From positions 21,762,001 through 21,826,000 of the forward strand of contig OX597827.1 in assembly GCA_951406725.2 (NCBI GenBank): a DNA stretch of 64,000 nt, in the 5' to 3' direction. Source of the stretch: Octopus vulgaris. Lineage: Eukaryota. Numbering within the stretch: position 1 is the first letter of the stretch; each line of letters starts with the position of its first letter. Shown here one piece after another: positions 2,466 through 57,100 of this stretch. The position numbers and the translations under genes were made by a program. Under the pieces are notes generated by a model, which saw nothing but the letters and a program-made list of their open reading frames with translations, was not told the DNA's origin and searched no databases.

Positions 2466-5400
2466 GTGTGCGTGTCGTGTGTATGTGTATGTGCGTTACG
2501 TAGCATTAACTCACCAATGGCTTGTCGATATGCTTCAATGGCCGCAGTAATGTTCTTCATCTCCATGTACTCGTGTCCGATAAGAGTCCAAGCTGAGAGG
2601 TAGTGAGGATTGAGCTTGAGAGCTCTTTGGAAATATAACAGAGCTTTTTCATGCTGAGACCTGAGTGAATAATAGTTGGCTGAAAACAATAATATAAAAA
2701 AAGAATAAATTTAAATAATGTATTCCATGCTAAATTCCTTTGGCAAGGGGTTTCCTACATTAAAAAAAAAAAAACTTTCTTAAATTCCTGCTTGTCAAAG
2801 ATGGTTCATTTATTTTTAACTGTTATTGATAGCAAACACAATGTTTTTAAATAAGTCAGACAGAGGAAGGGCAATGACCATAACCTTTGTAGGAATTCCC
2901 TAATATTGAGATAGATAGGGTGCAAGACTTGTTAACGTTTGACCGTTACAGGAAAATGAGGCAGGGGAGAGAACTAAGTATAAATGTTAAACGACCCTCC
3001 ACTAAAACCCCTTCGAAGACTTCAGGTGGTGGCATTAAAGTGGGCACTGTGATAGGGACATTTCATCCTGCTTGTCACACTGAAGTCAGGTTTGTTGTGA
3101 CCCCATGAAACAGAGAACAGATCTAACCCTACAAAGCGACCTTTTGACACTTCTAACGTTAGCTTCTCAAACCCTTAACTTCAAGCGTACTACATTATTA
3201 AACTGATCATCATCATCATCATCATCATCATTTAGTGTCTGTTGTCCATGCTGGCATGGGTTGGGTGGTTTTACCAAGCTGGAAGGCTGCACCAGACTCC
3301 AGTCTGATTTGACATGGTCTCTATGGCTGGATACCCTTCCTAACGCCAACCACTCTGTGAGTGTAATGGGTGCTTTTATGTGCCACCAGTATCTGCCAGC
3401 TATGATGAAGAATGATATATTCTCATTAGATGTATTGTCATTATTAGGGAAGAGCTTCATGTTCTGAGTTGTGTCAAGAAATTAAACAACCCTTGAAGGG
3501 TTCAAATCTAATTACAAACAAACCTAGTTATAACCAACTATTACACACACAATCATACATAAAAAAGGAGAGACAGTGTCTAGGCCATCAGGGACAGCTG
3601 CTGAAATGCAGAAAACATTCAATGAAGAAGGGTAATAGGGAGTCACTTGCACATTGGATCAAGTGTGCGTGTGTGTGTGGGGGGGTCATAATAAATGGCA
3701 AAGCAATATCATCATTTCGAAGGGCAACAGAGATAGTCTCAAGGGTTCTAAACTGGGATCCATATGACCCTTAGAGGGCTCATTTAAGATTTTGTTGTTA
3801 AAAATTACCTGCAATAACTTGGTTATACTTCTAGAATAGACAAAATATTTTAACAATTTTTTAAATACAATTCCTAAAAATATTTAATTATGAAAATATA
3901 ATATCATGTCTGTGCTAGTAGGGTGCCAAGAACACCATCTGAGCGTGATTGTTGTAATCATTGCCAGAGCAGCCAACTGGCTTCCGTACCCGTGGCACGT
4001 AAAAGGGCACCATGGGCACCATTCGAGCGTGATTGTTACCAACGTCACTTCACTGGCACCTGTGTCGGTGGCACGTGTAAAAAGATGCGAGCGAGGTCAT
4101 TGCCAGTACTGCCTGACTGGCCCCCGTGCAGGTGGCACGTAAAAAGCACCCACTACACTCTCGAAGTGGTTGGCGTTAGGAAGGGCATCCAGCTGTAGAA
4201 ACTCTGCCAGATCAAGACTGGAGCTTGGTGCAGCCATCTGGTTGCCAGCCTTCAGTCAAAACCGTCCAGCCCATGCTAGCATGGAAAACGGACGTTAAAT
4301 AGTGATGATGAATAGGAGTTTTTTAAACATTAAATGGCTGTGAGGGTCCACCCAAGTAAAATAGGAAACAAAGGGGTCCATGGGCAAAATAAAAAAAATG
4401 TTTGAGAACCACAGAAAGAAGACATATATAAGATTATCATGGTATGGGAGGAATGTGTATAAGTGGCAGAGCAAAGAAAATAAAGGACCATTGACAACCA
4501 TGACAACTGGTATGACATTACGGAGGAGAAGATCTGTCCAACCCACAGAAACACAAAGAGACAAATGGAGATTTTATATCAACTCACCAATAACACAACA
4601 AGTTTCCACACGATATTTATCAATCTCACAAACGCTATGGGCCAAGTAGGCCAATTCCACACGGTTCTCCTGAAAAATAAAAAAACACATTTAATATTAG
4701 GGATCTGAAACCCACAGAATTCCTAGATGGATATATATTTGTTATACATACATGGGGTAACAATCACAACCGCGTTGCCTTACTAGCACTTGTGCTGGTG
4801 GCATGTGAAACATTCGAGCGAGGACGTCGCCAGTGCCGCTGGGCTGGCTCCTGTGCAGGTGGCATGTAAAAAGCACCATTTGGACGTGGCCGTTGCTAGT
4901 ACCACCAAACTGGCCCTTGTGCTGGTGGCACATAAAAGCACCCACTACACTCTTGGAGTGGTTGGCGTTAGGAAGGGCATCCAACTGTAGAAACTCTGCC
5001 AGATCAGATTGGAGTCTGGTTCGCCAGACCTCAGTCAATTCATCCAACCCATGCTAGCATGGAAAGCGGACGTTAAATGATGATGATGATGATACACCTG
5101 ATTCACTTTTATGTCAGCCCTCTTTATACTAACCTGGTGAAGACACTCCTTGGTCCTTTGAGACAAACTTCCTATTTCAAAGGAACTAAATGAAAATGTG
5201 CTGCAGCATGAAGTTTTGTCAGTGAACAGGTCGCAGTCTCAAAGCGACGAAAATATTTTGACAAATTAAATTTAAATGTTGAAGTGAATCTAACGGTTTT
5301 TGTGTGTTTCTTAAATGGCTTATAAACACCTTCCACGCTGCAATTGTTTTCGTTCCAGCACACGATCTCAGATCAGGTCACTTGCTATGAAAGTACATCT

Positions 5401-8400
5401 CCGTAATAAATTGAAATCTTCTATCAAAATTTCATGTTAATTTACGTCCTAAACACGACATTCATAGTGACAAAGTTACTTCACTGAGTTTTTCCTTTTC
5501 AAAATAGAGTGAAAGCAGAAGCAGAGCATTTTAAAAAAAGTATCTTAATGAAAGGCCTAAACGTGAATGTAACATTTTCCCAGGTTACAAAGGTTTGTAA
5601 CATGGAAAGCCAAGCACAGGTTTCAATAGATATTATCAGTTACAGGAAAGTGGAGTGACACTGTTAAATGCCAACATCTTACGATTCTTTCAAATGAATT
5701 GCAGTCAGTTTTATCTCTTTTATCCTTTACTTGTTCCAGTCATTAGACTGTGGCCATGCTGGGGCAGTGCTTTGAAGAATTTTTAGTTGAATAAATCAAC
5801 CCCTGGCACTTATTCTATTGGGCTCTTTTGCTGAACTACTAAGTTATGGGGACAAACCAACACCGCTGGTGGTGACAATCATAAGCGCATGTCACTAACA
5901 TATGTCCTACTTCCTTGTTGGTATGGGTTGGATGGTTTGATCTGGCAAGCCAGGGGACTGAGCTTAAACTCCAATGTCCACTTTGATGTGGCATCTATGA
6001 CTGGATGCCCTTCCTGATGCCAGCCACTTTACTGAATGGGTGCTTTTCACATGGCACCAGTATCTATCAAACTTAACTGGTCAACTGAATGGAGGTTATT
6101 TGCCCAAAGTGCCACAAGAGAGGACTGAAGTTGAAATAATGTGGCTGTGAAGTAAACTTCTTTCTCACAAAGTCATGCTTGTACCCATGAAAGTCTCAAT
6201 AATGTCACCATTGATATTATTGGCAGAAACGTTAGCATGCCAGGAAAAATGCTTAGCAGTATTTCATCTGCCATAATGTTCTGAGTTCAAATTCTACCGA
6301 AGCCGACTTTGCCTTTCATCCTTTTGGGGGTGGTTAAATAAGTACCAGTTATTCACTGGGGTCGATGTAATTGATTTAATCCATTTGTCTGTCCTTGTTT
6401 GTCCCCTCTATGTTTAGCCCCCTTGTGGCCAATAAAGAAATAAATAAACCACCATTGTGACCAAAGAGTTTTTACCCTCAAAGTTTCTCATTAACTCTTC
6501 CTGGCCCCAAATATAACAAAAATTGGTGAAAATTATTTTTAAAAATCCCAATTTTTTGAAGATTTCCACATATTTGAAACGGCACATACTAAAATAGAGA
6601 ATCTTTGTCAAGCAAAGGAAGAATAGAGGAACTTTTTTAAATTTAGAAAATACTGATACAAGCATTAATAGAACACTTACTTTAACAAAAAGTATGTTTG
6701 AGAAAATATCCATGTTTTCTAGACGATAGGGATCTTTTTCTCGCAGTTTCATAAAAACATCAACAGCCTGATCAAAGCCTGTGAAAAAATAAAATTTAGG
6801 CCTAGATACTCGTTAATACTCCTCTAAAGATCATTTTACTTACCTCCACGTTTATACAAGTCTTTACAGTTTTACAGAAGCAAAAATTGAGCATTATAAA
6901 ACATTTTCTACTTCTAAGAATGTATCATAACAAGAATCTCTAAACATGTTTGTGAATGTATGTCTATATGGGTCAGACAAAATTCATTGCAGTGGGTTTT
7001 CTTGTGCCAACCCTAACCTGTTTCCAAGTAAGGTGATATTTCCCCAAGAATAGACATGTTTTTCACATAAGACTGAAGACAAGGGACTGCTTCTTTGATA
7101 GGAATACTTGTTTATAACAATCACATGATGTCAAGGCAAGAAGACAGTCACTATTTCTCTGTCTCACACACACACACAGATTGGCAGGATAGCTGTAAAT
7201 GAGCGTCACTGTCCTACAAGCAGAGTCACTCCTTTCCAGTATTCTGCAAAATATTCCATTGCTTGGGAACAGGTGAGGGTTGGGGACAGGCATCCAACTG
7301 TAGACAAACTGCTAGAATGCCCCGCCTGACCCACCTCCCAAGCATGGAAGGTGGATGTTAAATGATGATATGACAAGATACATAAGCAACATTCATGGTC
7401 ACTTAAACATGGTTGTTCCATAGAAACTGATGTTACTGCTATTTTTAACCCTGGGAGGACACCTCCTCCGGCCAGTTATTTAATGCAATCTACACCCAAC
7501 ATATATTGCAAGCAGAGGAGTGAACAACTACTATTCTCCAGCCACAAGATCACCAGACCATGTGGTTTCGACTGCTTCATGGTCATCCTTGGTGGTGGAT
7601 ACTCGTCTGCTAGAGATAGCAGTAGTTCACTCCAGCTTGCAATACATATACATATATATAATTTAAAAATAGGATAAAATCTTCATAAGAATTTATCAAG
7701 TAGTTAGCATGAAAAACCTCATAAGAGAAAAAAAACCCATCATTTTTTTCCTTTAAATTTATTTATTTATATTATATAGAGGGCACTATTACACATAGAT
7801 GCCTCACATTAGGAGGGACTCTTAAAGTCAAAACTATTATTTTAGTAGTTTTGACTTTAAGAGTCCCTCCTAGCATGAGGCATCTATGTGTAATAGTGCC
7901 CTCTATATTATATATATATATATATAATAAACATATTGAGAATAACAAGGTAGTCAGAATGTTGGATGATTGTGTATATTTCTATCGCTTTCTTCCGTTA
8001 TCGAATTTATCAAAAGAGTGGTTTACAATAAGTTTGCTTCAGCTTTTTATATAAAATTGAAAATGATGATGTTCTAGAAAACGAGAGAGGGGGAGATGGG
8101 AACAAATCAGAAAGGAATGTGCGGGGGTGAGAGAGGAGGATACAGCAGGAGACAGTAAGGTAAAGGAGACGAGGCTTTCGCATCAGGTCTGACCACAGAT
8201 ACAAAAACCATGCCTCTTTTACCTCATCCTCCTTCACAAACTCTTTTCTTCTTTCTTTTCCCTTCCTTCACAACCCCCTCCCCTCCAAATCGAGAATACA
8301 ATCCCAAAACACACTTCTACGTTCTTTTCTCTTCTCCATCCTCACCATCTCTTCTCTCCTCCTCTCTCACCTTTTCACTTTCCTTTCTAATTTGCTCCTC

Positions 8401-10721
8401 CCTCTCCTTTTCTAAAACATCATCAGTTTCAATTTTATATAAAAAGGTGAAGCAAAATTACTTTAAACCACTTTTTTGATAAATTCAATAAGGAAAGAGA
8501 GCGTTAAAAATGTAAATAAAAATATACGTAATCATGCAACATCCTTATTACCTTGTTATTCTCAATATACAAATTCTATACATCACTTCAGAAACTCTCT
8601 ACATTGACATCTCAGCACAGTCCACATGGCATTATGAACTAAAAACTGAAATCTTAGTTTGTTATGCCATGTGGGCTGTGCCTGCTGACTGTGCCAAGAT
8701 GTCAGATGTATTATAAAACATTGCTTGGCACGTTCTCAACACATGAAGACATGTATTGCATCTATTAAACTATATATTATTCAAAGAAATTCCAACTCTG
8801 TCTGTATTTTATGTTTTATTTATATTCTTTATAATATTAATATAAAATATAGTATAAATAATATATATAGTAAAATGAAATGAAGTATTGATTGTCTTAT
8901 TGAATAGATGAAATATTGAATATTAAATATTAAGGGACTAGTATACTTTCATGCGTTATAGCATTTTATATTCAACATTTCATCTATTCAATAAGACAAT
9001 CAATACTTCATTTCATTTTACTATATATATTATTTATACTATATATTCTATATTAATATTATAAAAAATATAAATAAAACATATAAAACAGAGAGTTGGA
9101 ATTCCTTTGAATATATATCCCTCTATACACAATCATACAAACCCCTTTTTATTTATTTACTTACATATATATATATATATATATATATGATCTCCTTTTA
9201 ATTTTTTTTTACTGGTTTCCTGTCATTTCAATGGTTTATGTTTGTTTTATGATTAAAATTCTATTTTTTTTATGACATCAGAAAGATGACAGGTAGATCT
9301 GAAATGACCTGAGACATTTTTTTGCAGGTAAGCTTGCAAGTGTCTATGTACGTTTAGATAGCATAGTTATTAGGAATTTGACTAGACTCTTGTGATTTTA
9401 CTGGTTGTTATTAAACTACTCCTGACTTAATTAATCTTTATAATCTTACAACAGAGTTAAAACATTAAAATTGATAATTGTTATTTGAGCAAAAATAAAG
9501 TTTTTACTGCTTGACCTACTTCGACTGTTGTCGTGAGCAATAGCCATTTGGGCTTGAATGTAAGTGCAGTCGGCGAATCCGTTATCAATGAAAGACTGGT
9601 AAATTTGTAGAGCTTCATCTGTGTGTTGTAGTTCTGAGTACATGTGTGCAAGAAATAAGTGTTTTATCCAATGGTTTGGTAATGTCAATGATTGAAGCTG
9701 GGATATAGAAAGGAAATTTAAATACAAGGGTAAGAAAAAAAAAAAAGCAATGGGATAAACAGTATTTTTGTAATAGAATATTTAACTAAATTAGTTTTGG
9801 AAATTATTTCATAAGAAAAAAGTTTAATATGAGAAATAGCAGATATAACTCCAGCTACAACTGGTCCAAATAAAATATTTACCAGTCTAATTTGTTAGTT
9901 CAATTTAAGAGATCTTATTTATGAAAGTAACATCTATAATTACTGACAAATATTATTATCTATAAAGAAATATTATGGATTGGTTTAAAATATATCAAAA
10001 AGTTTTGATTTTCTTATATTTGTTGTTATATTCTAAAATTGTTAGTTTCAAATCTCTAAAAGCCACATTCTAACAACAGACACAAATGTTCTTTACTTCA
10101 AGTCAAAGAAGATGATGTTCTTCACAAGTCACAGACCATAAACTCAGTTCCACCTGAAAGATTTCAGACTGAAAGCAAAGCAAATCCATTTTAACAGAGT
10201 TTCACTGAATACCTGACTAGTTTAGGAGATTTGTTAATTTGGAGTATTTTAGAAATCCAACAAAAACATGTGATAGTGAAAGCAGCAGTATTATAATAAT
10301 AATAAGAAGAAGAAGAATGAGAAGAAGAAGAAGAATGAGAGAAGAAGAAGAAGAAGAAACAGTAGCAACATAATTTGACTTACAGTCTCTTTGTCTGGAA
10401 TTAAAGTGTTAAGTTCTTGCCATGCACCCCAGTGGAGTGGTTCTTTGTGGACAGATTCCAATAAAACATTGGTAGCTTCTTTAAGTAAATCTAACTTCTT
10501 CAGAACAACACCATACCTACAAAGTAAACCAAATATCAAGCTAGGTTTGCTTGCAAGGGCCTTAAAAGGTCTGTTTTTTTTAATACATTTGTACCATGGA
10601 AAACCAGCAACAAGTTATTTCAGACAAGGATCTTTGGATTTTTTCGTTGTTTTGTTCAGTTTAAAATATTGGTTACTCAGTAAAAATCATCATCATCATC
10701 ATCGATCAATGTCCATTATCC

Positions 10722-17198: not shown

Positions 17199-18288
17199 CT
17201 CTCTCTCGAAGGGGAGATAATTCTGAGCGGAAAGCCGCACAATTTATTAGAGTTGGTCACTCTCTTGCGAAGGCATGGATGGGTTGGCGAAGCCCTTCTG
17301 CTAAAAAACACACGCTCTTATCTATATATACATAGATATACATACTAGCTTAAGAGCCACCTGCTCCTACGAAGGGTTCTTGATTGGGTCCTGGGCCCAA
17401 CGATGACACTTCATGCATTGAATACATAAAATTGAACAATATTTTCCAAATAATTAAAAGTATTCATAAACACACCGATTCGCTTTCACATTTATTATAA
17501 AAGCAAAGAATAGAAGACACGGATAATTTTGGGGAAACTATATCAATTAGAGTGTATTTTATATATATATATAGGTGTATGTGGGGGGTGTTAGAAGTGG
17601 TGTACAGATATTGAATATTGATTGAAGAGGAAGTCGCCAGAATTATGGAAAAAGAAATTTTTTTTTAATTCAGTCATTATTATTAGTGCTTTGGCGCGCT
17701 GGCAGGAACGTTAGCACGCCGGGCGAAATACTTAGCGGTATTTCATCTGTCAAATTCCGCCGAGGTCGACTTTGCCTTTCATCCTTTCGGGTCGATAAAT
17801 TAAGTACCAGTTACGCACTAGGGTCGATGTAATCGACTTAATACCTATGTCTGTCCTCTGTGTTTAGCCCCTTGTGGGTAATAAAGAAATAGGTATTTCG
17901 TCTGTCGCTACGTTCTGAGTTCAAATTCCGCCGAGGTCGACTTTGCCTTTCATCCTTTCGGGGTCGATTAAATAAGTACCAGTTACGCACTGGGATCGAT
18001 ATAATCGACTTAGTCCGTTTGTCTGTCCTTGTTTGACCCCTCTGTGTGTAGCCCTTTATGGGCAGTTAAGACATAATTATTAGTGCTTTCGTTCGTCTTC
18101 GAACTTGTCAAATAAAATTGTGAATGTGAAAAACAGTTTGTTCACTTATATAAATCAGTTTTGTTTTGTTTAGTTTTTAGAAGCAGAGAACATTAGGTTC
18201 AAGAGTGGTGACCTCTTTTAGGATGGGGAAAATAATGAAAAAAAGGATGGGGTGCGATCATCATTAAAAGCATTTTTGTCTGCGCGCG

Positions 18289-18354
<66 letters not shown>

Positions 18355-18523
18355 TGTGTGTGTGTGCCTGTGAGTTCATGTATTTGGAAATATGTAATTT
18401 CGATGTTTTGCATTGAAAAATAAAGCCAGATTTCTTTTAATTCAATGTTTTGTATGAACAAACAATATTTGTAAATTAGAAAAATATGTAAAGTTAGAAT
18501 ATGCCAATGTTACATATATATAT

Positions 18524-18733
18524 ATACAAAATTTAGAGGACTGACCACTAAAAGTGGACAGCCTGTATGCTAGATATAGACGTCAAAATCGCCATTTTCC
18601 ACGAAGAATGTGTTCTCAAGAAAAAATTCAGCAAAAATTGAGAACACATTCTTCGTGGAAAATGGCGATTTTGACGTCTATATCTAGCATACAGGCTGTC
18701 CACTTTTAGTGGTCAGTCCTCTAAATTTTGTAT
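18524..18733. repeat. Perfect 96-bp inverted repeat with 18-nt spacer, next to (TA)n
   Basis: 18524-18619 is the exact reverse complement of 18638-18733. Confidence 0.96.
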
Positions 18734-19059
18734 GTAAAAAAAAAAAATTTAATCTTCGGATTTTTAAAAATATGCTAGGCCACTGGTTTTAATTGATTAA
18801 TATCAATTTCTACACTTATTTAATTTTATATACGTGTGTGTGTGCCTTTCATACACACACACACACAAGACCAAGCACATACACTCACATAAGAACAAAC
18901 ACGCACACACTCACACACACACACACTGAAGGACAGGTGTACAACCCATTAGCTTTCTCTTTCCACGCAGCTGACAGTTGACAAGACAACACGTGCTCAT
19001 GGAAATTACCGAGTAGTATGTTTATAAAATTCGAGTCAAAACGAAACTACACCTATGTA

Positions 19060-26200: not shown

Positions 26201-26405
26201 GAACCATGTGGCTGGAAAGCAAATTTCTTATCAAACAGCCACATTATATATATATATGAAAATTATGTATTAATGGAAAACCTCTATTAATGGCTGATGA
26301 TTGCTCAACATTTTAAAACTGTTGTAATACTTACAACATTTAATAAAATGATGTAGCATGAAACGATCGTACCAAATTACCGAAGTTATTCTTGTTGCTT
26401 ATTTT

Positions 26406-26450
<45 letters not shown>

Positions 26451-27776
26451 TTATGAATTGAAGAAATGGAGTTGAACGAAGATTGAACAGAAATATTGCA
26501 TTCTACACGTGTTTGAAAGGCACAATATTCGATTGAATAATGAGACCATATTGTGTCTTTCTCTTCAGGAAGAAATAGGAAATCCGTTGGAAAAAACAAA
26601 AACAGAACAGAGGCGGAGCAAAACAAATCGAACGAGGCTCCTAAGAGCCCATGGCCAAACGCCTCTGTTCTGTTTTTGTTTTTTCCAACGGATTTCCTAT
26701 TTCTTCCTGAAGAGAAAGACACAATATGGTCTCATTATTCAATCGGAATTTGGTAAATTGTGCCTTTTGAAACACGTGTAGAATGCAATAAAACGATTTC
26801 TGTTCAATCTTCATTCAACTCCATTTCTTCAATTCACTAATAATATTAAAATTCAATTATCCGCACCAACGCACGGTTGCAACACCATATGGTTGTACCT
26901 CCAACCGTGCTGTCTTCTGCTGTGATTTTTGCTACCAAGGTATCGGTTAAACTTTTGATTAATCTGCAGCAAGATTATTCATCTTTCTATTTCACAAAAT
27001 ATATATATATATATATATATGTAAAATAAATGTTACAGATGTAACTATTTCAACCAGTATGTATTTTTTTTTAAAGAGAGTAAGTTGCAATTTGTAGTGG
27101 AATTTGCTATTAATTGTTGCAGGTTTGGTAATTACTTCGAGTTTTTTTAATTGGCATATAATTATATATTTCAATTATAAAAGTTTGCAATTATATATTT
27201 AATAAATGACATGCAGGCTTGCCAATATACATTTGGAGATATTATGAAATGATATTCTAGTATTTTCCAGCTATATTTTAATAACATTTGCAATAATTTA
27301 TTATAAATGACTAAGCTTCAATTAAAATGCACTAATTACGGTAATTTTATACAAAGATTACACCCTGACTGCCTGTGAACACTGCCCTTCCTTATCCATG
27401 AAATGTTTTCCTGTTTTGATAATTTTAGCTTGCACAGACATGCACACAAACAGTCACACACACACACACACACACATGATAATTAATCATTCAGTTATGG
27501 TTCAATTTTTATCATTACATTCATTACCTGTTACCTGGTTGACAATACAATGGAAAAACTTTAAATTTCAAATGTTTGTCCATTTAAAATGCTATCTTTT
27601 ATATACATACACACATACATACATTGGTAGAGGCATAGCTGTGTGGTAAGAAGTTTGCTTCTCAACCACATGAATCTGCGTTCAGTCCCACCTTGGGCAG
27701 GTAGCTGTTTTCTGCTATAGCCTTGGGTTGACCAAAGCCTTATAAGTGGATTTGGTTGACAGAAACTGAAAGAAGC

Positions 27777-27840
<64 letters not shown>

Positions 27841-30800
27841 CTACTTCAACATGGCTGTCCGTTCAAACGGATGCTACTGCTATTTTTTAACATGGCTGTT
27901 ATATAGATTTGATAAAAAGTAGAATTAGTGAATAAGAACATTCAGTTTATTAGTACTGAAGGAATTTATTATGATTGTGGAGTGCCTGAAAAGCCTCAAG
28001 TTTTTGAACCAATCAAATTATTGTCAGCAGTGGCCACAGAATTTGCCTGGAACCAATAAAAGAATAAACAAATGAAACAGCAGTCTGCATGGTTACAATA
28101 TAAACTGTTTTCTTCTGTTTGTTAACAAAATAATCATTGGTAATTAGTAGTATGCAATGTGTGAAATATAATTAAAATAATATTTCTCATGAAAGCTGTC
28201 TCGTTAGCTTGTTTAATTACTCTATTTATCATTCTAATGTATAATTTGATATTTTAGCAATGGGTTTTATTTTATTCTTTTACTTGTTTCAGTCATTTGA
28301 CTGCAGCCATGCTGGAGCACCGTCTTAAAGGGTGTTAGTCGAAGAAATCGACCCCAGGACTTATTCTTTGTAAGCCTAGTACTTATTCTATCAGTCTCTT
28401 TTGCCGAACTGCTATGTTACCAGCATCAATTGTCAAGTGATGGCTAGGGTACAAACATAGACACACAAATACATACAAACACACATACACACACACATAT
28501 ATATAGATGTATATGTGTGTATGTTTGATTGATTGATTGATTGATTCTAGTTTCAGCTCACGAGCTGTGGCTATGCTGGGGCACCGCCATTTGGTGTTGC
28601 TACATGGTTTTATTTCACGAATGCTTTTTAGCAACTGCCATTTGGTGCATGAGAGAGTTCGATGCAGCTGCCCTCATCTGCACCTCCTGCCGTGAAGTTG
28701 GTTCATCTGGGATACCTGACAAGAAGAGATCCAGTTTCATTTTAAAGACATCTGCATCCACCCCATGCAGGTCTCTTAGGTTCTTCAGGAGGATATTGAA
28801 GAGCTGTGGGCCTCAGAAGCCCAGGCTATCACAGTATCTTGTCCTACATCTTGATGGCAAATGTGGAGTCCTTGGCACCACGCAGTGGCGCCCAGTTCTG
28901 GCATTTGTGTAACTCTCGATGCCAAAGTTTGGGACAAGTCCTTCCAGGATCTTCCAGATGTATATTATGGCATATCTTTCTCACCTACGCTCCAAGGAAT
29001 AGAGTTTTAATCTCTTGAGTCTTTCCCAGTAGCTTATATTCTGCACAGAGGCTATCTTCTTCGTGTAGCTACATTGGATCGCCTCAAGTTCTGTGATCAA
29101 CTTGACACTGGATGGTGACCATAGCTGAGAGCAATAGTCAAAGTGGCTTAGGACAAGTGTCCTCCAGAGGACCATCATGGTTTCTTGTTCTCTTGTTCTA
29201 AAGGTTCTGAGAATCCATCCGGCCAGTCGTCTACATTTCATTGCCAATTTAGCAACATGTACACGAAAGGTTGCGTCATCACTCATGTAAATACCCAGGT
29301 CACGCACTGATTGTGCCTCTGGGATTGCGATTCCTCCGGGTCCAGTGTATTTATTGGGTATTGCATTTAGTTTTGCATGCTGATAGCATAAAGCTTGAAA
29401 CTTTTCAGCATTGAACTGCATGCTATTCTTTTCAGCCCACTTGTATATTTTGTCCAGCTCACATTGCAGGCGTTTAGTGTCCTCAGGGTTCTGTATTGCC
29501 TGTGAAACTTTTGTATCATCTGCATAACTTATGATCGTGGCTCTCTGCGTGGCTGAGGGCATGTCTGAGAGGGCCATTATGAACAGTAATGGTCCCAAAA
29601 CAGTGCCCAGCGGAACACCGCTCACTATTTGCGTGTTAATGGAAGTGGCCCCATTGGCTACTACCACCTGACTTCTATCTTTCAGAAAGTCATGAAGCCA
29701 TTCTCCCAGTTTTCCAACTATGCTAAGATCACGCAGTTTGTGACATATCATTCCATGATCGACTTTATCAAAGGCCTTTGCAAAGTCGAGATATATCACT
29801 TCCACATTTGAGTGGTTGAGCAGTCGTTTCAGCACCCAGTCATAGTGTTGTAGGAGCTGAGTTAAGCAGCTTCTTCCTGGTCGGAAACCATGTTGGGTGT
29901 CAGGCAGCAAGTCATTTTCTTCAAGGAAGGTGATCAGTTTCCTTCTGACTATTCGTTCCATGACCTTGCTGATGTGTGAGGTCGGAGAGATAGGTCTGTA
30001 GTTCTTGGCCTCCGCTCTGCTACCTCCTTTATGAATAGGGCATATTTTACCTTCCTTCAGTTTTCTTGGAAGTTTGCCAGCTGCAAGGAAGCTCTGAAAG
30101 AGGAACTGCAGTGGTCTTGCTAGGACTCTCTTACATACTTTTAGGAGGATTGCCGGGAATCCATCGGGGCCAGTAGCTGAGTCTGTTTTCATTTCATCTA
30201 TAGCTTTTATTACATCGTCTTCCTTTATATCGATGTAATCTATCGTCGCTGCCTCTGATTTTATATCTGCAGTGGTAAAGAAGTCAGTTGGATTGGTGAT
30301 TTGGAAATGCCCAAGGGGTGGAGTGAAAACACTCTTGAATTGCTCATTCAGTATTTCACTCATTGGTTTTCCTGTGAGTGTGCCATCCTTTTCAAGGAGT
30401 GGCCCTATCCTACAGTGCACCGTAGCTGTTTCTTTGGCATACCTGTAGAAAGCTCTGGGGTTAGATTTTATGTTGTCTATAGCCCAGGCTTCTTTGTCTG
30501 CTCTTTCCTTTTCATGGGAGAGTTGCAGACATTTTTCAATTTCCAACAGTTTTATTTTCAGGCGGGACTTTTCACTGCTTTCAATTTGTTTGTTTAGGCG
30601 ATTTGAAATTTTTGTACGCCGTCTCATTAAAATTTTCCTCTCTCTGGGGATTTTGTTCTTGTGTACAGTGGCCTTTCTCTCTGGGACACATTTGTAGCAT
30701 ATGGCTTGCATTACAGACATGAATTGTTGAAGTTTCACGTCGATGTCTGGCGAGGAGAAACATTCAGGCCAGTTTTGTTTGAGGATCTCTTTCTCAATTT

Positions 30801-33665
30801 GTTTCCAGTTTGCCTTATGGAAGTTCAAGCTGGAAAGATTCTGAGGGTTTCTTGTAGGCTGCATGTCCATGCTTTCCTTTGGCCCATACATGGTCAGCTC
30901 TACCATGTTGTGATCCGAGAGTAGTGTCGGTGTCACTTTCACATTATGGATGAGATCCATATTATTTGTGAAGCAGAGATCCAGTGTGTTACCTGCCCTG
31001 GTTGGTTGGAGTATTACTTGCTCCATGTACAGGGTGTTGATGAGGTTCAGGAGGGACCTCGCCTGTCCTCGTTCACATCTTGTCATTCCTGGGAGAGAAA
31101 GGCCCTCGGGCCATCTGACATTGGGTAGATTGAAGTCTCCCATAAGAAGTACACTTATGTGTTGTTCTAATGTGATTAGAACTTCTATTTTTATAAGGCA
31201 GTCTTCAAACTTGCCTACATGGCTTGGGGCATCTGGAGGGCGATATGTAGCACACACAACTACATCAAGTTGCCTTATATGTACAATTAGTGTGTCACAC
31301 ACCGAGTTTGAGTATGACAAAAGGACCTGGGGTGTGAGGTCCTCACGGATGTACATAGCAACTCCTCCATGACTCCTTTCTTTTCTGTCGGTCCGTAGTA
31401 CAACATACTGTGGTATGTGTAATTCCGCATCTGCTATGTCCGGTTTCAGGTGCGTTTCCATAAGTGCTATGCATAAGGCTTGATTGCATGCAACGAAGTC
31501 TCTCAAGAACGGGATTTTTGTCCTGTTACTGAGTGTTTGCAGTCCTCTGATGTTCAGTAGGAGCATCGAGGTGAGGTGTATGCTGTTGCCGGTGGTGTCC
31601 ACCTTGGGTCTATTTGCTGTGGTGGTCTTGTATATTGTGGGTAGTTCCATCTGCGAGCTTGGGTTTGATGAAGCCGGGTTAGCTGCTGTACAATCTTTTG
31701 TGCCATGCACAAAAAAGATTCTTGTTCAGCAGCTGCCCTTTCAACAACATCATGTTGGCAGTTTGTGGCACGCACCACATCTGCGTACCTCTGTTTTGGA
31801 GCAGGTGGTGCGTGGTCCATCCCTTTTCCTTTTGTTAGTTTGTTTCTGATCTGTTTCGTGTCTCTGCGGCAGGGTCCCCGATGTGCAAAACAGCAGCCTG
31901 CACCTTCCTCTCCATGCCAGCAGGTACCTCTCAGGTAGAACCTACACACCCGTGTATATATATATATATATACAATTGAAAAATAGGATAAATAGGAGTT
32001 TATCAAGTTTTTAGCGTGAAAAAACCTTATAGGGAAAAATCCATCAATTTTTCCTCTTAAAATATATTTATATTAAGGGCATTACTATACTTAAATGCCT
32101 CACGCTAGGAGAGACTCTTTAAGTCAAAACTACCAAAAATGAATAAACACATTGTATTGAATACGAAGGAATGCAGCTCCCAATATATATATATATATAT
32201 ATGTATATATATGTATATATAACAATTTAACTAGGTGTAAAATACACCTAAGGGATATTAAGTTTATGAAATGTGACATTTGTATAAAATATTTAAACTG
32301 AATTGAATTTATAATTGTTTGGTTGGCCTGTCCAGTTATCATTTTTATCTACTTAACTTTTGAATGGTCAGTTTCCTCATATTGCAATATTATTCCAATT
32401 CACTCCATATTTTCTCCTTGGTCATATCTAGCCAGCCGGCTGTACTGGAATTAGATACACAGAAACTGGAGGCAAATTAGACCCGTTGTGTTTAGTTGAC
32501 TTGGTGTGTGCGGCTGATGAGAATGAATATTGTAAAGAAAGGAAATCCCTTCAAGACAGATCATGTCTTCAACCGAGTCAGTTGAGACCATTTGGGTATG
32601 GACTCTTGAGGTAAGATGTTCTAGAATGATTTATTATTGTTGTTGTTGTTGTTCAATATCATCTTTGCTTTTCATCATTTTGGGGTTAATAAAGTAAATA
32701 CCAGGATTGATGTAATGACTTGCTCTTCTCCTCAAATTGTTGGCGCTTTGCCGAAATTGGAAAGCCCTTTAATACTAGGGTTTTACTCATGATTTTGACA
32801 TATAACTGTGGAAGTATCTTTTTGCCATCATGGGTAATATCAAGAAATATGGCAGACATACAATAATTGTCATGTAACATTTATAACACTTTTTGGTGCT
32901 TATACAAAATTATGAAATGAATATCAATTATCAAAATAAAAATATTTATTCCTTTAAGTTAAAATTATATAAAACAAAATTCCCATTTATATAATTCCTC
33001 TCATAACTTTTCTGTAATTTACTCCCCCTCCTCTTCTTTCTCCTTCTCTGTTCTATGATTCTTTTCTCTCTCTCACACACTGCATGGATCATTCCTTTTC
33101 TCATTGCCTGCCATCAAGCCTAGTATGTGTACCACTCTAAGTATCTCTCTTTTTCACTCTCTCTCCACCCCTCTCTATATGATGTAAAGTGTGACTGGAG
33201 AAATCAATCAAGCAACCAACCAACACACATTTACACCATTTATTATGACTTTACCTTTCATCCTCTTGGGGTCGATAAAGTAAGTTTCAGTCGAGTACTG
33301 GGGTTGATGTAATTGACTAGCTTCCAGCCCCCAAATTTCAGGCCTTGTGCCTATAGTAGAAAAGATAATTATTTCTATTATTAATTTATATGATCTGAAT
33401 AATTGCTTTTGTATATTCTATTCCAAATTTATATTTTTCACCTTGACTAGGTAACTCTCAGCTTCCTCTACGACACTCTGATGGTTAAAGACAAGCATCA
33501 CCAACATACAAGCAATGTTTTTTGTTTTCAGTCTTTCATGGAAAACCTGGTCAGTGGGAAGGTTCAGTCCCATTGCTTGGCACCTTGAATCAGTGTCTTC
33601 TACCATAGCCCTGGGCCAACCAGAGCTTTGTGAGTGAATTTGATAGACAGAAACTGAAAGATGTC

Positions 33666-42300: not shown

Positions 42301-43127
42301 CCTTTATTATATATATATGGTCTGATCAATATGTATCCAGACCGTTGCCATATTAACAAAACTAAAGCAAGCAGAGTGAAACCTCTTGGTATGGATTGAC
42401 CTTGACCTCTGCTATGCATGTGCATTAAGTTTTAACATTGTAACTCATTTCCCCCGTTTACAGCAGTGCTTGGAAGGAAGGTGTGTAGCATGTGGTCATC
42501 GCATTGGCTATGACAGAGAAAGCTGAGCAGAGAATCTGCATCAAATTTTGCCAAAAGCTTCACAATACCTGCTCAGAGGCCTACACAAAGTTTTCAAAGT
42601 TCTTGACACAATCAAGGAGATCTTGTGCAACTGAAACCCGAGTGTCTTCCTGCTCAGTTGAAAGCAGTTTTGGCACTAAATTGGCAGACACGTGTCTCAT
42701 ACCCAAATCTTCAGTGATAACAGGCACATCTGCGATATTTTTCTCAGTTCTCCTGGTTGCTGGTCTTCCAGAATGTTTGTCACTATTGATATTTTTTCAG
42801 CCATCTTGAAAACCTCTGAACCACTCGTATGCTTGTGTGCAGCTCATACACTTCTCTCCATACACTTTCTACAACGTTGTGTAGGCCTCTAAGCAGGTAT
42901 TGCCATGACAACTTTCTCTGTCATGGTCAATGCAACAATCACATGCTACACACCTACCTTCCAAGCACTGCTGTAAACAGTGGAAGTGAGCTACAATGTT
43001 AAAACTTAATGTGCATGCACAGCAGAATTCAAGTGCAATCTGTCCCAAGCGGCTTCACTCTGCATGCTTTAGCTTCATTACTATGGCAACAGTCCAGATA
43101 CTTATTGATCATACCTCGTTATATATA

Positions 43128-43211
<84 letters not shown>

Positions 43212-43418: not shown

Positions 43419-46400
43419 TCATGTATGTACGTATAGTGTTTGAAGTGGTGTACAGATATTGTATATTGAAAAAAAGGAGACAGTCAGAATTTTTGATAAT
43501 TCTTTATTAATATTTCATTTGTTTAACTGAATACTTCAAGACAAAAGTTAAAACCAATATATATATATATATCAATTATCTTTTATTAGTAATTATAATT
43601 ATATATTTAGTTTAATTTGGAGATAACTTCTGAGATTTTTTTTAAATGCATCCCTGTTATCAGCATCATAATTTTGCATCTGTTTTCCATGCTAGATTGG
43701 TTGTCATGATCTGAGTTACTTCTCATTTACAGACACTGTTCTTATAGACTGGTGCTCATACATACCATTTGGCTGGGTTTCTACCCCTGGATGCCCTTCC
43801 TGCCACCAACAATTTACAGAGTGCATTAGGTGCAATTTCTCATGCCCCCCCTCTCTACACAGGTTGAATTGCCCTTGATGAGATAAGACTAGAGGCACCT
43901 CATAACCCTACACTTCCTCTGATCATTTAACCAATCACTTCACTGAATGAACAGTTGGTGTATGGTGGTGGGGTGGGTTGGACTGGTGCCTGGTAACTTT
44001 AGATAGGGAGCGCATTCAGCATTCCGTACCCTAAAGTGTGTCGACTGAACTAGGAAAGGAGATGGAACCCTGGCAACAGGAAAGCCAGAAATGGGGAGTT
44101 GAGAGGAGGAGGGGCTGGGGGGTGTAGATGTAGAGAGTACTCTCAATAATCGAGGGGTGTATACTTTTGTGTTTTAATTTTGTTTCACTTTTCTTTTTTT
44201 CTTTCCTTCCCTCAGTTGCTTGCTGATGATTTAGGGACAAGACTGAGTTTGCTTGAGCGCAACGTCAATACATTTTATCAACCAGAGCAATTCACTGTGA
44301 GTATATCATCATCATCATCATCATCATCATCCTCATAGACTATAATTTTGTATCTAATATGATTATTATTTACAATCTTAGTACACACACACACACACAT
44401 ACGTACATACAGTGTGTTGTTTGACAACTAGTGTTGGTTTGTTTATGTTCCCATGATTTAGCAAGTCAACAAAAGCGATTGATGGAAATTAGTACCAGAC
44501 TTAAAAAAAAAAACCTGGTGTCAATTTATTCAACTAAACTCTTCAAAGCAGTGCCCCAGCTTGGCCACATTTCGATGACTGAAACAAGGAAAAGATAAAA
44601 AGTATCGACTTCTGGCTTTCGTACAGATTTTTTAAGGAAATCCTAATTTAGTTAAATCTTTGCAGAATTATTATTTCTCATTTGTATTAGTATTAATTGC
44701 AAGGTGAGACCACATTTCTTTGGCAGAAGAAAATAGTTCAAGCGAGATGATAACTTTCAAAATAATATATTACAGGCGCAGGAGTGGCTGTGTGGTAAGT
44801 AGCTTGTTTACCAACCACATGGTTCCAGGTTCAGTCCCACTGCGTGGCACCTTGGGCAAGTGTCTTCTACTATAGCCTCGAGCTGACCAAAGCCTTGTGA
44901 GTGGATTTGGTAGACGGAAACTGAAAGAAGCCTGTCGTATATATATATATGTGTGTGTGTGCGTGTATGTTTGTGTGTCTGTGTTTGTTCCCCTAGCATT
45001 GCTTGACAACCGATGCTAGTGTGTTTATGTCCCCGTCAATTAGCAGTTCGGCAAAAGAGACCGATAGAATAAGTACTGGGCTTACAAAGAATAAGTCCCA
45101 GGGTCGAGTTGCTCGATTAAAGGCAGTGCTCCAGCATGGCCGCAGTCAAATGACTGAAACAAGTAAAAAGAGAAAAAGAGAGAAAGAGATTTTATTATGA
45201 CTTCATAAAGTCAATCTAAAAACCTTCACATACCATTCTATTGTGAAACAGATTCACATACCATTCTATTGCAAAACAGATTCACATACCATTCTATTGC
45301 AAAACAGATTCACATACCATTCTATTGCAAAACAGATTCACATGCCATTCTATTGTGAAATAGATTCACATACCGTTCTTTTGTGAAATGGTTTCACACA
45401 CCATTCTACAGTTAAACGGTTTCACATATCTTTTTTTCTTCAGAATAATAATTATGAGAATTGGAAAAAAGAAGAAAGGTCACTCCTTGGTTTTTTACTT
45501 CAAATGATTGGTCGAAACAATATTCCAAAAGTCAAGGACGACTCTACTTTAAGATTGAGTGAAATACACAGCCATTATCAATGTTTGTCTGAAAGGCTAT
45601 TTCTGTAAGTTTGTTGAAAAATATTTGCTTGTTTTTTCTTTCTTTTTTTTTTGATATCATAATTCTTGCAAAAGATATTGGTTCAAGGTAAACACCTGAA
45701 ATATTAAAAGTGTCTTTGTTTGTCATTAATAATGAATTAATGATAAAAAATTCCAGATGGAATCTGTTTTATTTAATTTTTTGATTTACAAACTGCTGAG
45801 GATGAAACCTCATCTCCTGAATATTGGTTTCAAATTTTGGCACAAGGCCTGCAGGTGGTGGGGAGGATAAGTTGATTACGTTGACCCCAGTGCTCTGCTG
45901 GTACTTACTTTATCAACCCCAAAAAGATGAAAGGCAGAGTCCAAGTCAGCACAGTCATTCCCTCAATAGTAATTACATCATCCTCATCAATTTGGCAGAA
46001 CTTGAAAAGATTGTAGTGACGTCATGTTCCAGTGTGCGCACACGCAACGTCATTCTTCAGTGTGCGTGTGCAGAACGTCACCTTTGTAGTGACGTCATAT
46101 TCCAGTGTGCACACACGCAACGTCATTCTTTAGTGTGCGTGTGCGGAACGTCTTTCTTCAGTGTGCGTGTGCGGGGTTGGAACCTTCTGGAACCTTCTGG
46201 AAAGGCATAAGGAAGTTTCCCCATGCACATGCGCTAGAGACTGAAGAATAAATTCTAGAGCGTTCCTTAATAGCGTTGGGGATTTGAGACACGGCGATAG
46301 AAGAGAAAGGACGTATATTTTGAATCCTGTGATCAGCCTATTCTCCTGTCCCAGACACTTAGGATTTAACCTGTTCTTCTGCTGCTGAATTGTTGTAAAG

Positions 46401-54100: not shown

Positions 54101-57100
54101 TAACTCTAAAGTGAAAACAAAATAGAGAAATACACACGCCTATTCAAATATGTATAACAATTTCAAAGGATTTAAATAAAACTATTTTGTATACTCCTTC
54201 AATATTACACCACCCTCAGTTGAGGGGTCTCTGTCTTGCAAGCTACTTGGTGGCCTCACTGGTGCAGGTGCCATGTAAAAAGCACCCGGTACACTCTGGG
54301 GAATGGTTGTTGTTAAGAAGGGCATCCAGCTGTAGAAACCATGCCCCCAACAAGAAAATAGAATATGATGCAGTTCTCTGGTTTGCCAGCTCTTGCTGAA
54401 TTGTCCTGCTCAGGGCAGCATGGAATGCAAATGTTAAACGGTGATGATAATGACAATGTTAATGATGATGATGGTGGTGGTGGTGGTGGTGGTGGAGGCG
54501 GAGGCAGCGGTGGTGGCCGCGGCAGCGATGGCGGTGGCAGCAGTGATGACAACGATGACTCGTTTGCTCTCACTGAATTCATGATGGGACAGTCTGCAGC
54601 TTCAGAAAACTCTAAACCCTACAAACTCAGCTGTGTCTCTTTGTTACAAAACGTCTCTTAGAATATTTAATAGTCTTTCCAGAAGGCTATGAATGCCAGT
54701 CATCCAAACTCTTATAAGATTCTTTTTTAAATGCATCTGAACAGGTAATCCATTTAAGGTAAACATTTTGTTTCACCTGAAGTAAACTTTTTTCTCATTC
54801 TGCTCACAAACTTCAGAATGTTTCATTATTATCGTTATAACTGAAGACATGCATGAGTGAACAATGATAAATGTAACTGGAAAAAAAAAGTCTTAAATTT
54901 GTAAAATATTTTAAGCTCTTGCAGAATTTTATTTTGCTCTATTCCACAAAGTCTCTTTGAAAATATTCTTCTAATGTAATTCTGTATTCTTTTCTATTTT
55001 CAATGACCTTTGACCATTCTTCATATAAAATTCTCAATGCCAAAGCTTTTTATTATAAGAAATAATTTTATCTTGCTAATCAGATTTGTCATAGTCCATT
55101 TGATAATAATGAGTTTATTGTATAGAGTGTTAGGGATGCTGTAACTGCTTGGATGCACCACACTTGCCCCAGTATATTGCAGTGTTCAATATATTTTCCC
55201 ATGAATCAATCTATTCCACAATTTGATATTTTGTTAAATTTCTATTTTCTACAGATCAAAAACTATAGATTACTGAACATTCTTCAGCATCTCTTTTAGT
55301 TCCTATCATATTCTTTATTTCCTGTATTATATTTCCCCAGTTAAAAGAATCCTTTTGTTTCCAATTACCATCACAATTCAAGTTGTCCCTAATTCGATAT
55401 TTCAGATTCGATGATAAAATCTTTTAATATCCTCCACCAGCTGAGTAAATACTTGAACGACATTCCAAACATGTTGGAAATGAAGACCGAGATATATTGT
55501 ATGACTCAGGTAAGCAATTTGTTAAACCATTCCACTACCTTTGTTACTGATTAAATCGTTTCATAATAAGCTGCCTGAGACTGTCCATGATTCTATAATA
55601 CAGTGGAATCTTGGTTTATGCCTTTCATTCTAAACAATTTTTCAAAAACAAGATGTCTTAGGTGGTGAATGGTTTCTTGAGTAACAAACTTACAAATCAG
55701 TAACAATGGTTTTGGTGGTAAGCTGGGAGTATCAGTGGGAGGAGAGTGTCAGTCTTTGTCTAGCTTTCACTCAGTGCAGATCCTTCTCTTGAACTTACTT
55801 TCTCTTGAATTTCTTGGGAGAAAATCAGTTTTGGCTTGCAAACATTTTGTGTGATGAACAAGCTTCAGGAATGAATTCAATTTGTAAACCAAATTTCCAC
55901 TGTACAAGCTTTCCATTTTAAAGGGATCTAAAAACCTTCCATTGCAACTTCACGTTATTTTAAGTTCCAAATACAAAAGCAAAACTGGCAGAATCATTAG
56001 CAATGTGGAACAAAATGCTCAGAGACACACACTTCGGATTCTTTACATTCTGAATTCAAATCTCACTGAGGTCAACTTTGCCTTTCATACTTCCATGGGT
56101 GGGGGTCAATAAAATAGAAGACCAGCCAATTGCTGCAGTCAATATAATCAACTTGCCTCTCCCCTCAATATTTTTTCCCCATAAATACATTTATATGCTA
56201 TAAAAAGGAAAATGTGAGAAATTATGAATTTTTGGCAACCCCACTCCCTGACCCTGATTGTTTCTGTTTAGAAATTAAGATATCGAAGAGCCTGAGAAGG
56301 TCATTGCTGGCATTTATCCACATTGGCTTAAAACAATTATGGAGATGTACTTGCATAGCAAGTGACTTGATCTGAGATCATGTGCTAAAACGAAAACAAT
56401 TGCAGCATGGAAGGTGTTTGTAAGCCATTCAAGAACACACAAAAAATTAGTTTCACTTCATTTAAATTTCATTTGTGCCAAAATATTTTCTTCGCTTTGA
56501 AACTGTGACCTGTTCACTGACAAAACTTCACAAAAGTGATGCAGCACGAAGTTTCGTCAGTGAACAGGTCACGGTTTCAAAGCGAAGAAATTATTTTAAC
56601 ACAAATGAAATTTAGATGCTGGAGTGAAACTAACGGTTTTTGTGTGTTCTTGAATGGCCTACAAATGCCTTCCATGCTGCGATTATTGTTGATTTTAAAA
56701 AAGAGTTTTGCAAACGATAATTCATTTTAGTAGCATACTTTTCGGTTAGAAAATGCTTTTTCTTACACACACACACGGCTCCACTTGATTCAGGTGGGGG
56801 TAAAAATTTAGATTACAATTTATTTTGTTGTTTTTCTTCCACCAATGGACCACGTATGTGTTACTTCAGCATCATCATTCCAGAAACTGTGTTTAACGAG
56901 AGAAAAATATTTAAAAAAACATCAATACATGTGTAAGTGAAAAAGGGAGGGTGGTTTCGATTGTGCTAGAAACAACAGCGAAACCTTCCTTGAATTGTTC
57001 ACCTTTTCCTCTGAAAATATTTACAATTTGTTTTGTTCTTTGTTTTTACTGAAAAGGTTCTTCCATGGCTTTTAAGTTAAAAAAGAAAATGGCCAAAATT

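Follow-up and report, generated by a model that had tools for sequence, protein, structure and literature searches.

Fold-back repeats stacked between TA microsatellites in CDC23 intron 6 of Octopus vulgaris, probable stubs of Penelope-like elements

Penelope-like elements (PLEs) are the closest described systems to the locus treated here. Their insertions have been reported to carry an inverted 5'-truncated copy, with a tail of 30-40 bp at one end and a bias towards microsatellites and (TA)n (PMC8557442), and the supplement of the same paper reports that the Naiad PLEs of Octopus prefer (TA)n. In metazoan PLEs, minimal hammerheads lie on opposite strands at distances of 100-700 bp (Cervera and De la Pena 2014, PMC4209133). 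The lizard protein of Anolis Poseidon (PAc) cuts both strands of AT-rich DNA in vitro and extends them; two internal start sites on the RNA define the tail, and insertion in vitro does not depend on hammerhead cleavage (Frangieh et al. 2024, PMC11167929). Here we describe a stack of fold-back repeats with hammerhead motifs in intron 6 of the gene CDC23 of Octopus vulgaris. It occupies positions 7480-9190 of a stretch of 64,000 nucleotides (nt) (contig OX597827.1, 21,762,001 to 21,826,000, forward strand), which is called the window below and from which all our counts are taken.

The stack consists of five fold-backs packed between TA microsatellites, numbered here as modules 0 to 4. We consider it likely that these five repeats are old, short insertions of several PLE families, each probably formed by two head-to-head copies of the tail end of an element. 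What is found here is most likely an insertion pattern that is already known and not a new ribozyme system, the hammerheads presumably being passengers of the terminal repeat. The original prediction had described four unrelated modules in this intron. The stack, its place in the intron and the mutual unrelatedness of the modules stand, but there are five fold-backs, and modules 1 and 2 have relatives elsewhere in the window. All three inverted repeats that had been listed were recovered, and the decayed hammerhead placed at 7551-7597 is present, not as a module by itself but as the loop of module 0. The features of the stack are as follows, with the strand where one was assigned.

About 7501-7555 and 7593-7650: arms of module 0, an inverted repeat with a decayed hammerhead as loop (shuffle test, fold)
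7551-7598, minus strand: decayed type I minimal hammerhead (descriptor; sub-threshold in Rfam)
7642-7660: decayed (TA)n between modules 0 and 1
7661-7773, minus strand (presumed): one-sided 113-nt extension of the long arm of module 1
7774-7908: module 1, a near-perfect hairpin with a loop of 3-4 nt (95% over 63 aligned nt)
7909-7926: (TA)9 between modules 1 and 2
7933-8568: module 2, an inverted repeat, 7933-8140/8357-8568 (outer arms 87% over 200 nt)
8569-8600, plus strand: one-sided tail of module 2, about 28-35 nt, common to single-arm copies near 43430 and 17590
About 8600-8712: module 4, a short hairpin absent from the original prediction (fold z -7.6)
8772-9118: module 3, an AT-rich inverted repeat with a 34-nt spacer (arms 96% alike, 148/154 nt)
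8929-8962, minus strand: hammerhead 3' half in the module 3 spacer (GAAA, perfect 8-nt palindrome, UA cut site), the 5' half being absent
9119-9188, plus strand: 46 nt that may be the tail of module 3 (unproven), then (TA)12
31956-32182: relative of module 1 with one arm, flanked by TA runs on both sides

A Penelope-type origin had already been suggested, and it is supported by single-arm copies, one-sided extensions and hammerheads of the PLE type. The left arm of module 1 together with the outer 113 nt matches 31956-32132 (152 of 175 nt identical), and because the copy at 31956-32182 has the arm plus the extension, 7661-7773 was counted as part of the element. That copy has no second arm and holds about 45 nt more sequence past the hairpin apex. 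Similarly, the right arm of module 2 and the next 28-35 nt recur near 43430 (score 77, reached by 0 of 2,000 shuffles) and near 17590 (score 48, 1 of 2,000). Both copies are single-armed, each lies just beyond a (TA)n run, and the left arm of module 2 is without the tail. A third candidate near 32260 scored 55 (0 of 2,000 shuffles) but was heavily gapped and was not counted. One-sided tails were found in three repeats, namely module 1 (113 nt), module 2 (about 28-35 nt) and the repeat 56387-56695, with about 50 nt relative to its relative at 5204-5407. The arrangement known from PLEs, an inverted 5'-truncated copy adjoining a longer copy with the 3' ends outward, was also found, the polarity of modules 1, 2 and 4 being presumed.

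The relative of module 1 has a long interspersed nuclear element (LINE) as its neighbour. This LINE has an ORF2-like frame on the minus strand (28981-31725; 914 amino acids (aa); endonuclease/exonuclease/phosphatase and RVT_1 domains), which ends beside the TA run preceding the relative. Module 1 was considered as the 5' end of this element, which encodes an apurinic endonuclease (APE) and a reverse transcriptase (RT); the idea was rejected, the relative being beside the LINE but separated from it by the TA run 31955-31972. Also rejected was the idea that the arms of module 1 hold a decayed hammerhead facing inward, since it has no helix I partner and was found by neither descriptor.

Ten fold-backs were surveyed for their association with TA runs: modules 0-4 plus five taken from the window's self-BLAST list, from which inverted repeat pairs with wide spacing and three small palindromes of low complexity were excluded. 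Eight of the ten have one end at most 12 nt from a TA run of at least four units, the window background being 2.5%, which agrees with the (TA)n or AT-rich insertion bias of PLEs and with the repeated targeting of (TA)n that had been proposed. The two that lie away from TA runs are module 4 and the repeat at 56.4 kb. Only 42318-43119 has TA runs at both ends. No constant target duplication was found at the eight repeats checked, apart from overlap with the TA runs. Within the stack the TA runs are at 7652-7660, 7909-7926 and 9165-9188, and the modules had been described as mostly separated by (TA)n; this is true between modules 0, 1 and 2 and at the closing end, but between 8568 and 8778 there is no TA run of at least four units. 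Short TA stretches lie at both ends of module 3, whose TA run partly overlaps the arm.

Further fold-backs lie elsewhere in the window. The long-armed inverted repeat 42309-43128 fits, in form alone, a miniature inverted-repeat transposable element (MITE) or a transposon with terminal inverted repeats (TIRs), and it is probably a true TIR element. The inner frame of 42318-43119 has what we take to be a resemblance to the N-terminus of a mariner transposase, with no hit in Pfam. The fold-back at 33.7 kb resembles a pair of short interspersed nuclear elements, a label given by eye. The hairpin 18521-18736 is 99% identical with an 18-nt loop, its left end abuts a TA run, and it showed no clear hammerhead and no second copy in the window.

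The hammerhead of module 0 is well beyond chance. Its descriptor, which was set post hoc, matched in 0 of 20,000 local shuffles and in 1 of 300 whole-window shuffles. The core, at 7592-7586, has two mismatches, and the UC cut site lies after 7556. Helix I has 5 bp, a single additional base precedes helix II, which begins with G10.1-C11.1, and GAAA is followed by a 10-nt helix III that is palindromic save for one base. Rfam Hammerhead_1 gave 11.9 bits (E 5.5) for a gathering score of 34, and the minimum-energy fold of the motif alone was no better than that of shuffles (z -0.85). The inverted-repeat score of module 0 was reached by 0 of 2,000 shuffles. Its arms lead straight into helix I, so that the loop is exactly the hammerhead, and the right arm continues into the decayed TA run. 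The short arm starts at the first base past the cut site; this is one case, and the inner 15 nt of the alignment contain three gaps. In the other hammerhead-bearing copies the junctions lie between about 90 nt upstream and 10 nt downstream of the motif, which supports the proposal that the junctions form near the hammerhead. Arm-to-arm differences are in CpG context in 0 of 5 cases in module 0 and 3 of 26 in module 2, and since they are so few, CpG decay is only a tentative reading of the G-to-A changes of the hammerhead.

Hammerhead 3' halves had been reported in the spacers of two of the three inverted repeats. The one in module 3 is present and is suggestive of a hammerhead remnant, being equalled in 20 of 20,000 spacer shuffles and in 247 of 63,966 real 34-nt tiles, but the one in module 2 is weak. 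Module 2 probably has its apex at about 8190-8200, and the inner arms align weakly, with a score reached by 110 of 3,000 shuffles. The doubtful remnant at about 8175-8197, on the minus strand, sits at a small apex hairpin. It has neither a helix II nor a palindromic helix III and was equalled in 21 of 10,000 shuffles and 29 of 3,190 real tiles. Taken by locus, the minimal hammerhead is decayed in module 0, half present in module 3, doubtful in module 2 and absent from modules 1 and 4, and it is present at 26294, 26707 and 5222. The hammerheads of the stack at 7480-9190 are broken and predicted to be inactive. Its three remnants (7551-8962) are all on the sense strand of CDC23, and the motif in intron 7 (5222-5258) is antisense and intact; these are too few cases to infer selection.

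A similar stack had been predicted at 26245-26850, and there it was indeed found, with hammerheads that are clearer than those of 7480-9190. Its two parts are the following.

26258-26407, plus strand: short fragment flanked by TA runs on both sides; its hammerhead core, 26294-26371, is complete and the cut site lies 37 nt from a TA run
26446-26848: 99% identical inverted repeat with an outward-facing hammerhead inside the arms, the complete copy being 26707-26780 on the plus strand

The repeat 26446-26848 directly adjoins (TA)n on its left; on its right, 151 nt separate it from the following TA run. In both repeats that carry the motif inside the arms (26.4 kb and 56.4 kb) it faces outward. 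The motif at 26707, folded alone, was not better than shuffles (z +1.17). At 26294 the helix II region of the hammerhead is unusually long, with 59 nt (26301-26359; fold z -3.1).

The window also holds hammerheads apart from the two stacks. The family formed by 5204-5407 and 56335-56695 has a well-formed minimal hammerhead with a G3:C8 core instead of C3:G8, at 5222 and 56517; at 5222 helix I has 7 bp, helix II 5 bp and the fold a z of -2.4. In the literature text searched, the only G3:C8 core met was that of an engineered double mutant which kept part of its activity. The copies at 5204 and 56387 have an identical short apex palindrome. A compact minimal hammerhead of the U3:A8 variant, for which natural examples are mentioned in PMC3088659, lies at 18081-18111 on the minus strand, about 900 nt upstream of the CDC23 start codon and outside any inverted repeat. 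A looser descriptor, built on the extra base before helix II, the G10.1-C11.1 pair and the palindromic helix III that PMC4209133 gives for PLEs, had three real hits (5222, 7592, 18111), the mean in 300 shuffled windows being 0.01. A separate scoring scan gave seven hits of at least 8 (mean 1.75 in 1,054 shuffles) and two of at least 12 (mean 0.05). It missed module 0, which has three deviations for a limit of two, and the later descriptor was set so as to admit it. The Rfam scan of the whole window had no hammerhead among its 88 matches, and Rfam gave no match for the 26707 or the 5222 motif.

The insertion units of Penelope/Poseidon, Neptune and Nematis described in PMC8557442 resemble the octopus repeats in having an inverted 5'-truncated copy, a one-sided tail, (TA)n and a hammerhead near the terminal repeat. 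They differ in that here there are only stubs of 100-650 nt, with no open reading frame (ORF), no tandem pseudo-LTR (long terminal repeat) and one extension of 113 nt. With the minimal hammerheads of PMC4209133 the octopus motifs share the short helix I, the extra base before helix II, G10.1-C11.1 and the palindromic helix III, as well as the opposite-strand pairs a few hundred bases apart and the U3:A8 variant, here at 18111. In contrast, the motifs of the 7480-9190 stack are broken or partial, and the G3:C8 core was not met in the available text of that paper. PAc is alike in its AT-rich target, in both-strand extension, in its two start sites and in spanning the uncut hammerhead. Moreover, both PAc and module 0 have an ATG at the start of helix II, which in module 0 is followed by 36 open codons, a length that is not significant. 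The PAc mechanism, however, was shown in vitro for a lizard protein, whereas the octopus families are described here from their sequence. Octopus Naiad (Naiad_Obim and Naiad_Ovul, supplement of PMC8557442) comes from the same host genus and has the same (TA)n preference, but no sequence match was found by short words or by eye, and Naiads are described as having no canonical hammerheads.

The label retrozyme-type, part of the original prediction, does not hold. Non-LTR retrozymes (Cervera and de la Pena 2020, PMC7229834; Li et al. 2026, 10.64898/2026.07.22.740005) are likewise non-coding and PLE-related and have a type I hammerhead, but they form head-to-tail arrays in which every 150-450 bp monomer has its own hammerhead, whereas here the units are single and head to head, and neither stack contains a head-to-tail monomer array. 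The idea of ribozyme-terminated RNAs is not supported either, because the recognisable hammerhead copies span the cut site intact and the elements end 37 to about 170 nt downstream. As to the non-autonomous families that had been proposed, ordinary elements that left short 5'-truncated ends would account for the data just as well.

How such stubs could arise may be proposed by analogy with PAc. A GIY-YIG nuclease would nick both strands of AT-rich DNA, here within a TA run, and the RT would extend both 3' ends, giving two cDNAs primed from two nicks. Copying would begin at two internal sites of the RNA, leaving the tail on one copy only. Both cDNAs would then stop early near the hammerhead region and be joined at their truncated ends, head to head; in module 0 this joint may have been made through 5 bases of hammerhead helix I. 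The flanking TA runs would persist or regrow and draw the next insertion, and in this way a stack could build up.

A number of observations weigh against a PLE origin of the five repeats. The whole case rests on a single 64-kb window, and every hammerhead descriptor was written after the motifs had been seen. Module 1 has no hammerhead by the motif descriptors and module 4 has none either, the remnant of module 2 is doubtful, and the 113-nt extension of module 1 is far above the published 30-40 nt. No second copy of modules 0, 3 or 4 was found in the window, so their tails are unproven. A gene with RT and GIY-YIG domains was not found, since none of the 142 ORFs scanned matched a PLE domain. 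These were taken from 162 ORFs of at least 72 aa; of the other 20, 9 are frames within the LINE and 11 belong to CDC23 exons or to repeats of low complexity. Frames over module 3 are not among the listed ORFs. The only RT of the window is that of the APE-type LINE; fragments of stub length, nevertheless, would not hold the RT and GIY-YIG gene. A short-word search with the published Naiad, Chlamys and Hydra consensus set matched 0 of 6 and 1 of 6 words, the sole match falling inside a coding stretch and being taken as chance, and two Naiad 3' motifs had no relevant match in the window. Kinship to the 3' ends of Octopus Naiad was not seen with short words and by reading of the consensus ends, a comparison which diverged kin could escape. 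In addition, hammerhead 3' halves show no enrichment window-wide, where there are 4 for a mean of 2.8 in 300 shuffles. The use of 3' halves alone as evidence was rejected.

Scans with exact 20-nt matches for copies elsewhere gave 0 hits in viral contigs, 1 in metagenome contigs and 5 in prokaryote genomes; the six matches extend to at most 25 nt and are due to chance. Of 24 public runs listed, 20 contain the window in whole or in part, which is not taken here as support. Our literature searches returned no paper on these octopus stub families.

Some modules, most plausibly 3 and 4, might instead be MITEs or fold-back DNA transposons inserting at TA, with hammerhead-like words arising by chance, which we find decidedly unlikely. 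The window does have one symmetric element of this form, with TA runs on both sides of its inverted repeat (42318-43119), module 3 with its short TA stretches at both ends and its lack of a second copy would suit this explanation, and GAAA-palindrome halves are expected about 2.8 times per window. However, the relatives of module 1 and of module 2 have one arm with an extension on one side and lie beside (TA)n, which argues against MITEs for these two; the absence of a constant target duplication at the eight repeats checked, the local chance of 0.1-0.4% for the module 3 half and the hammerhead of module 0, far beyond chance, also speak against it. Since modules 0, 3 and 4 lack second copies in the window the MITE reading may still apply to them, least of all to module 0. 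A role of the hammerhead that goes further than that of a passenger, namely that it fixes the head-to-head joint in vivo, with the 5204/56387 lineage having a programmed turnaround, is unlikely in our judgement. One cDNA would then run off the ribozyme-cleaved RNA and anneal to a second cDNA made from uncut RNA, and the recurring 5204/56387 apex palindrome with the natural G3:C8 core would mark an octopus PLE lineage.

We also considered that small non-autonomous ribozyme RNAs were reverse-transcribed once and that the cDNA folded back on a hammerhead helix and copied itself, an explanation that seems very unlikely. The arms of module 0 running into helix I, the closeness of the other junctions to the motif and the apex palindrome shared by the 5204 and 56387 copies all favour it. 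Self-primed fold-back fits the helix-I junction of module 0, as does annealing of two cDNAs, but module 0 is a single case with a gapped inner alignment, tandem monomers are missing from both stacks and the copies span the cut site uncut. Moreover, priming from two internal start sites, as reported for PAc (PMC11167929), would directly give one-sided tails, which fit it at least as well as fold-back, and cleavage is dispensable there in vitro. Finally, the hairpins could be later than the insertions: unstable TA runs may have undergone replication template switching or break repair, which inverted an adjacent piece of repeat. Template-switch inversions are a described process, and the short arm of module 1 does end at an internal AT-rich tract, with a loop of 3-4 nt. 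This explanation leaves unaccounted for both the clustering of junctions at hammerheads and the fact that a tail of PLE size is lacking on only one arm of module 2, and we give it a very small chance. Two-start-site insertion of truncated PLE ends, joined head to head, is the reading that we prefer for the stack as a whole.

The placement of the stack within CDC23 rests on several exons. A protein cluster named Octopus bimaculoides CDC23 aligns with 96% of the length of a 57-aa exon (2510-2680) at 100% identity. With the database CDC23 protein as query, tblastn places coding exons 1-6 between 17198 and about 9520 on the minus strand, and exon 7, which is missing from the database protein model, was read at about 6778-6681; 7480-9190 is therefore intron 6. 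The database model continues into this intron (9449-9520) without exon 7 (6681-6778), which suggests a gene-model error around the hairpin-rich intron 6. Just left of module 0 there is a short repeat (7401-7454) whose other copy, 27843-27895 (80% over 54 nt), begins directly after a (TA)29 run. Because of this position of the other copy, the stack may reach leftward to about 7395.

If the five repeats are indeed PLE stubs, they would be ordinary retroelement debris and a compact example of how, in octopus introns, several PLE families end up in TA microsatellites, which act as sinks. Repeat annotators may then take such stubs for MITEs. The hairpins lie within the CDC23 pre-mRNA, where they could be putative double-stranded substrates for editing. 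The only leads left towards something further are the junction of module 0 on hammerhead helix I and the nearby G3:C8 hammerhead variant. Helix-I junctions, if common, would matter more, as the in vivo role of the PLE hammerhead is called unclear in PMC8557442.

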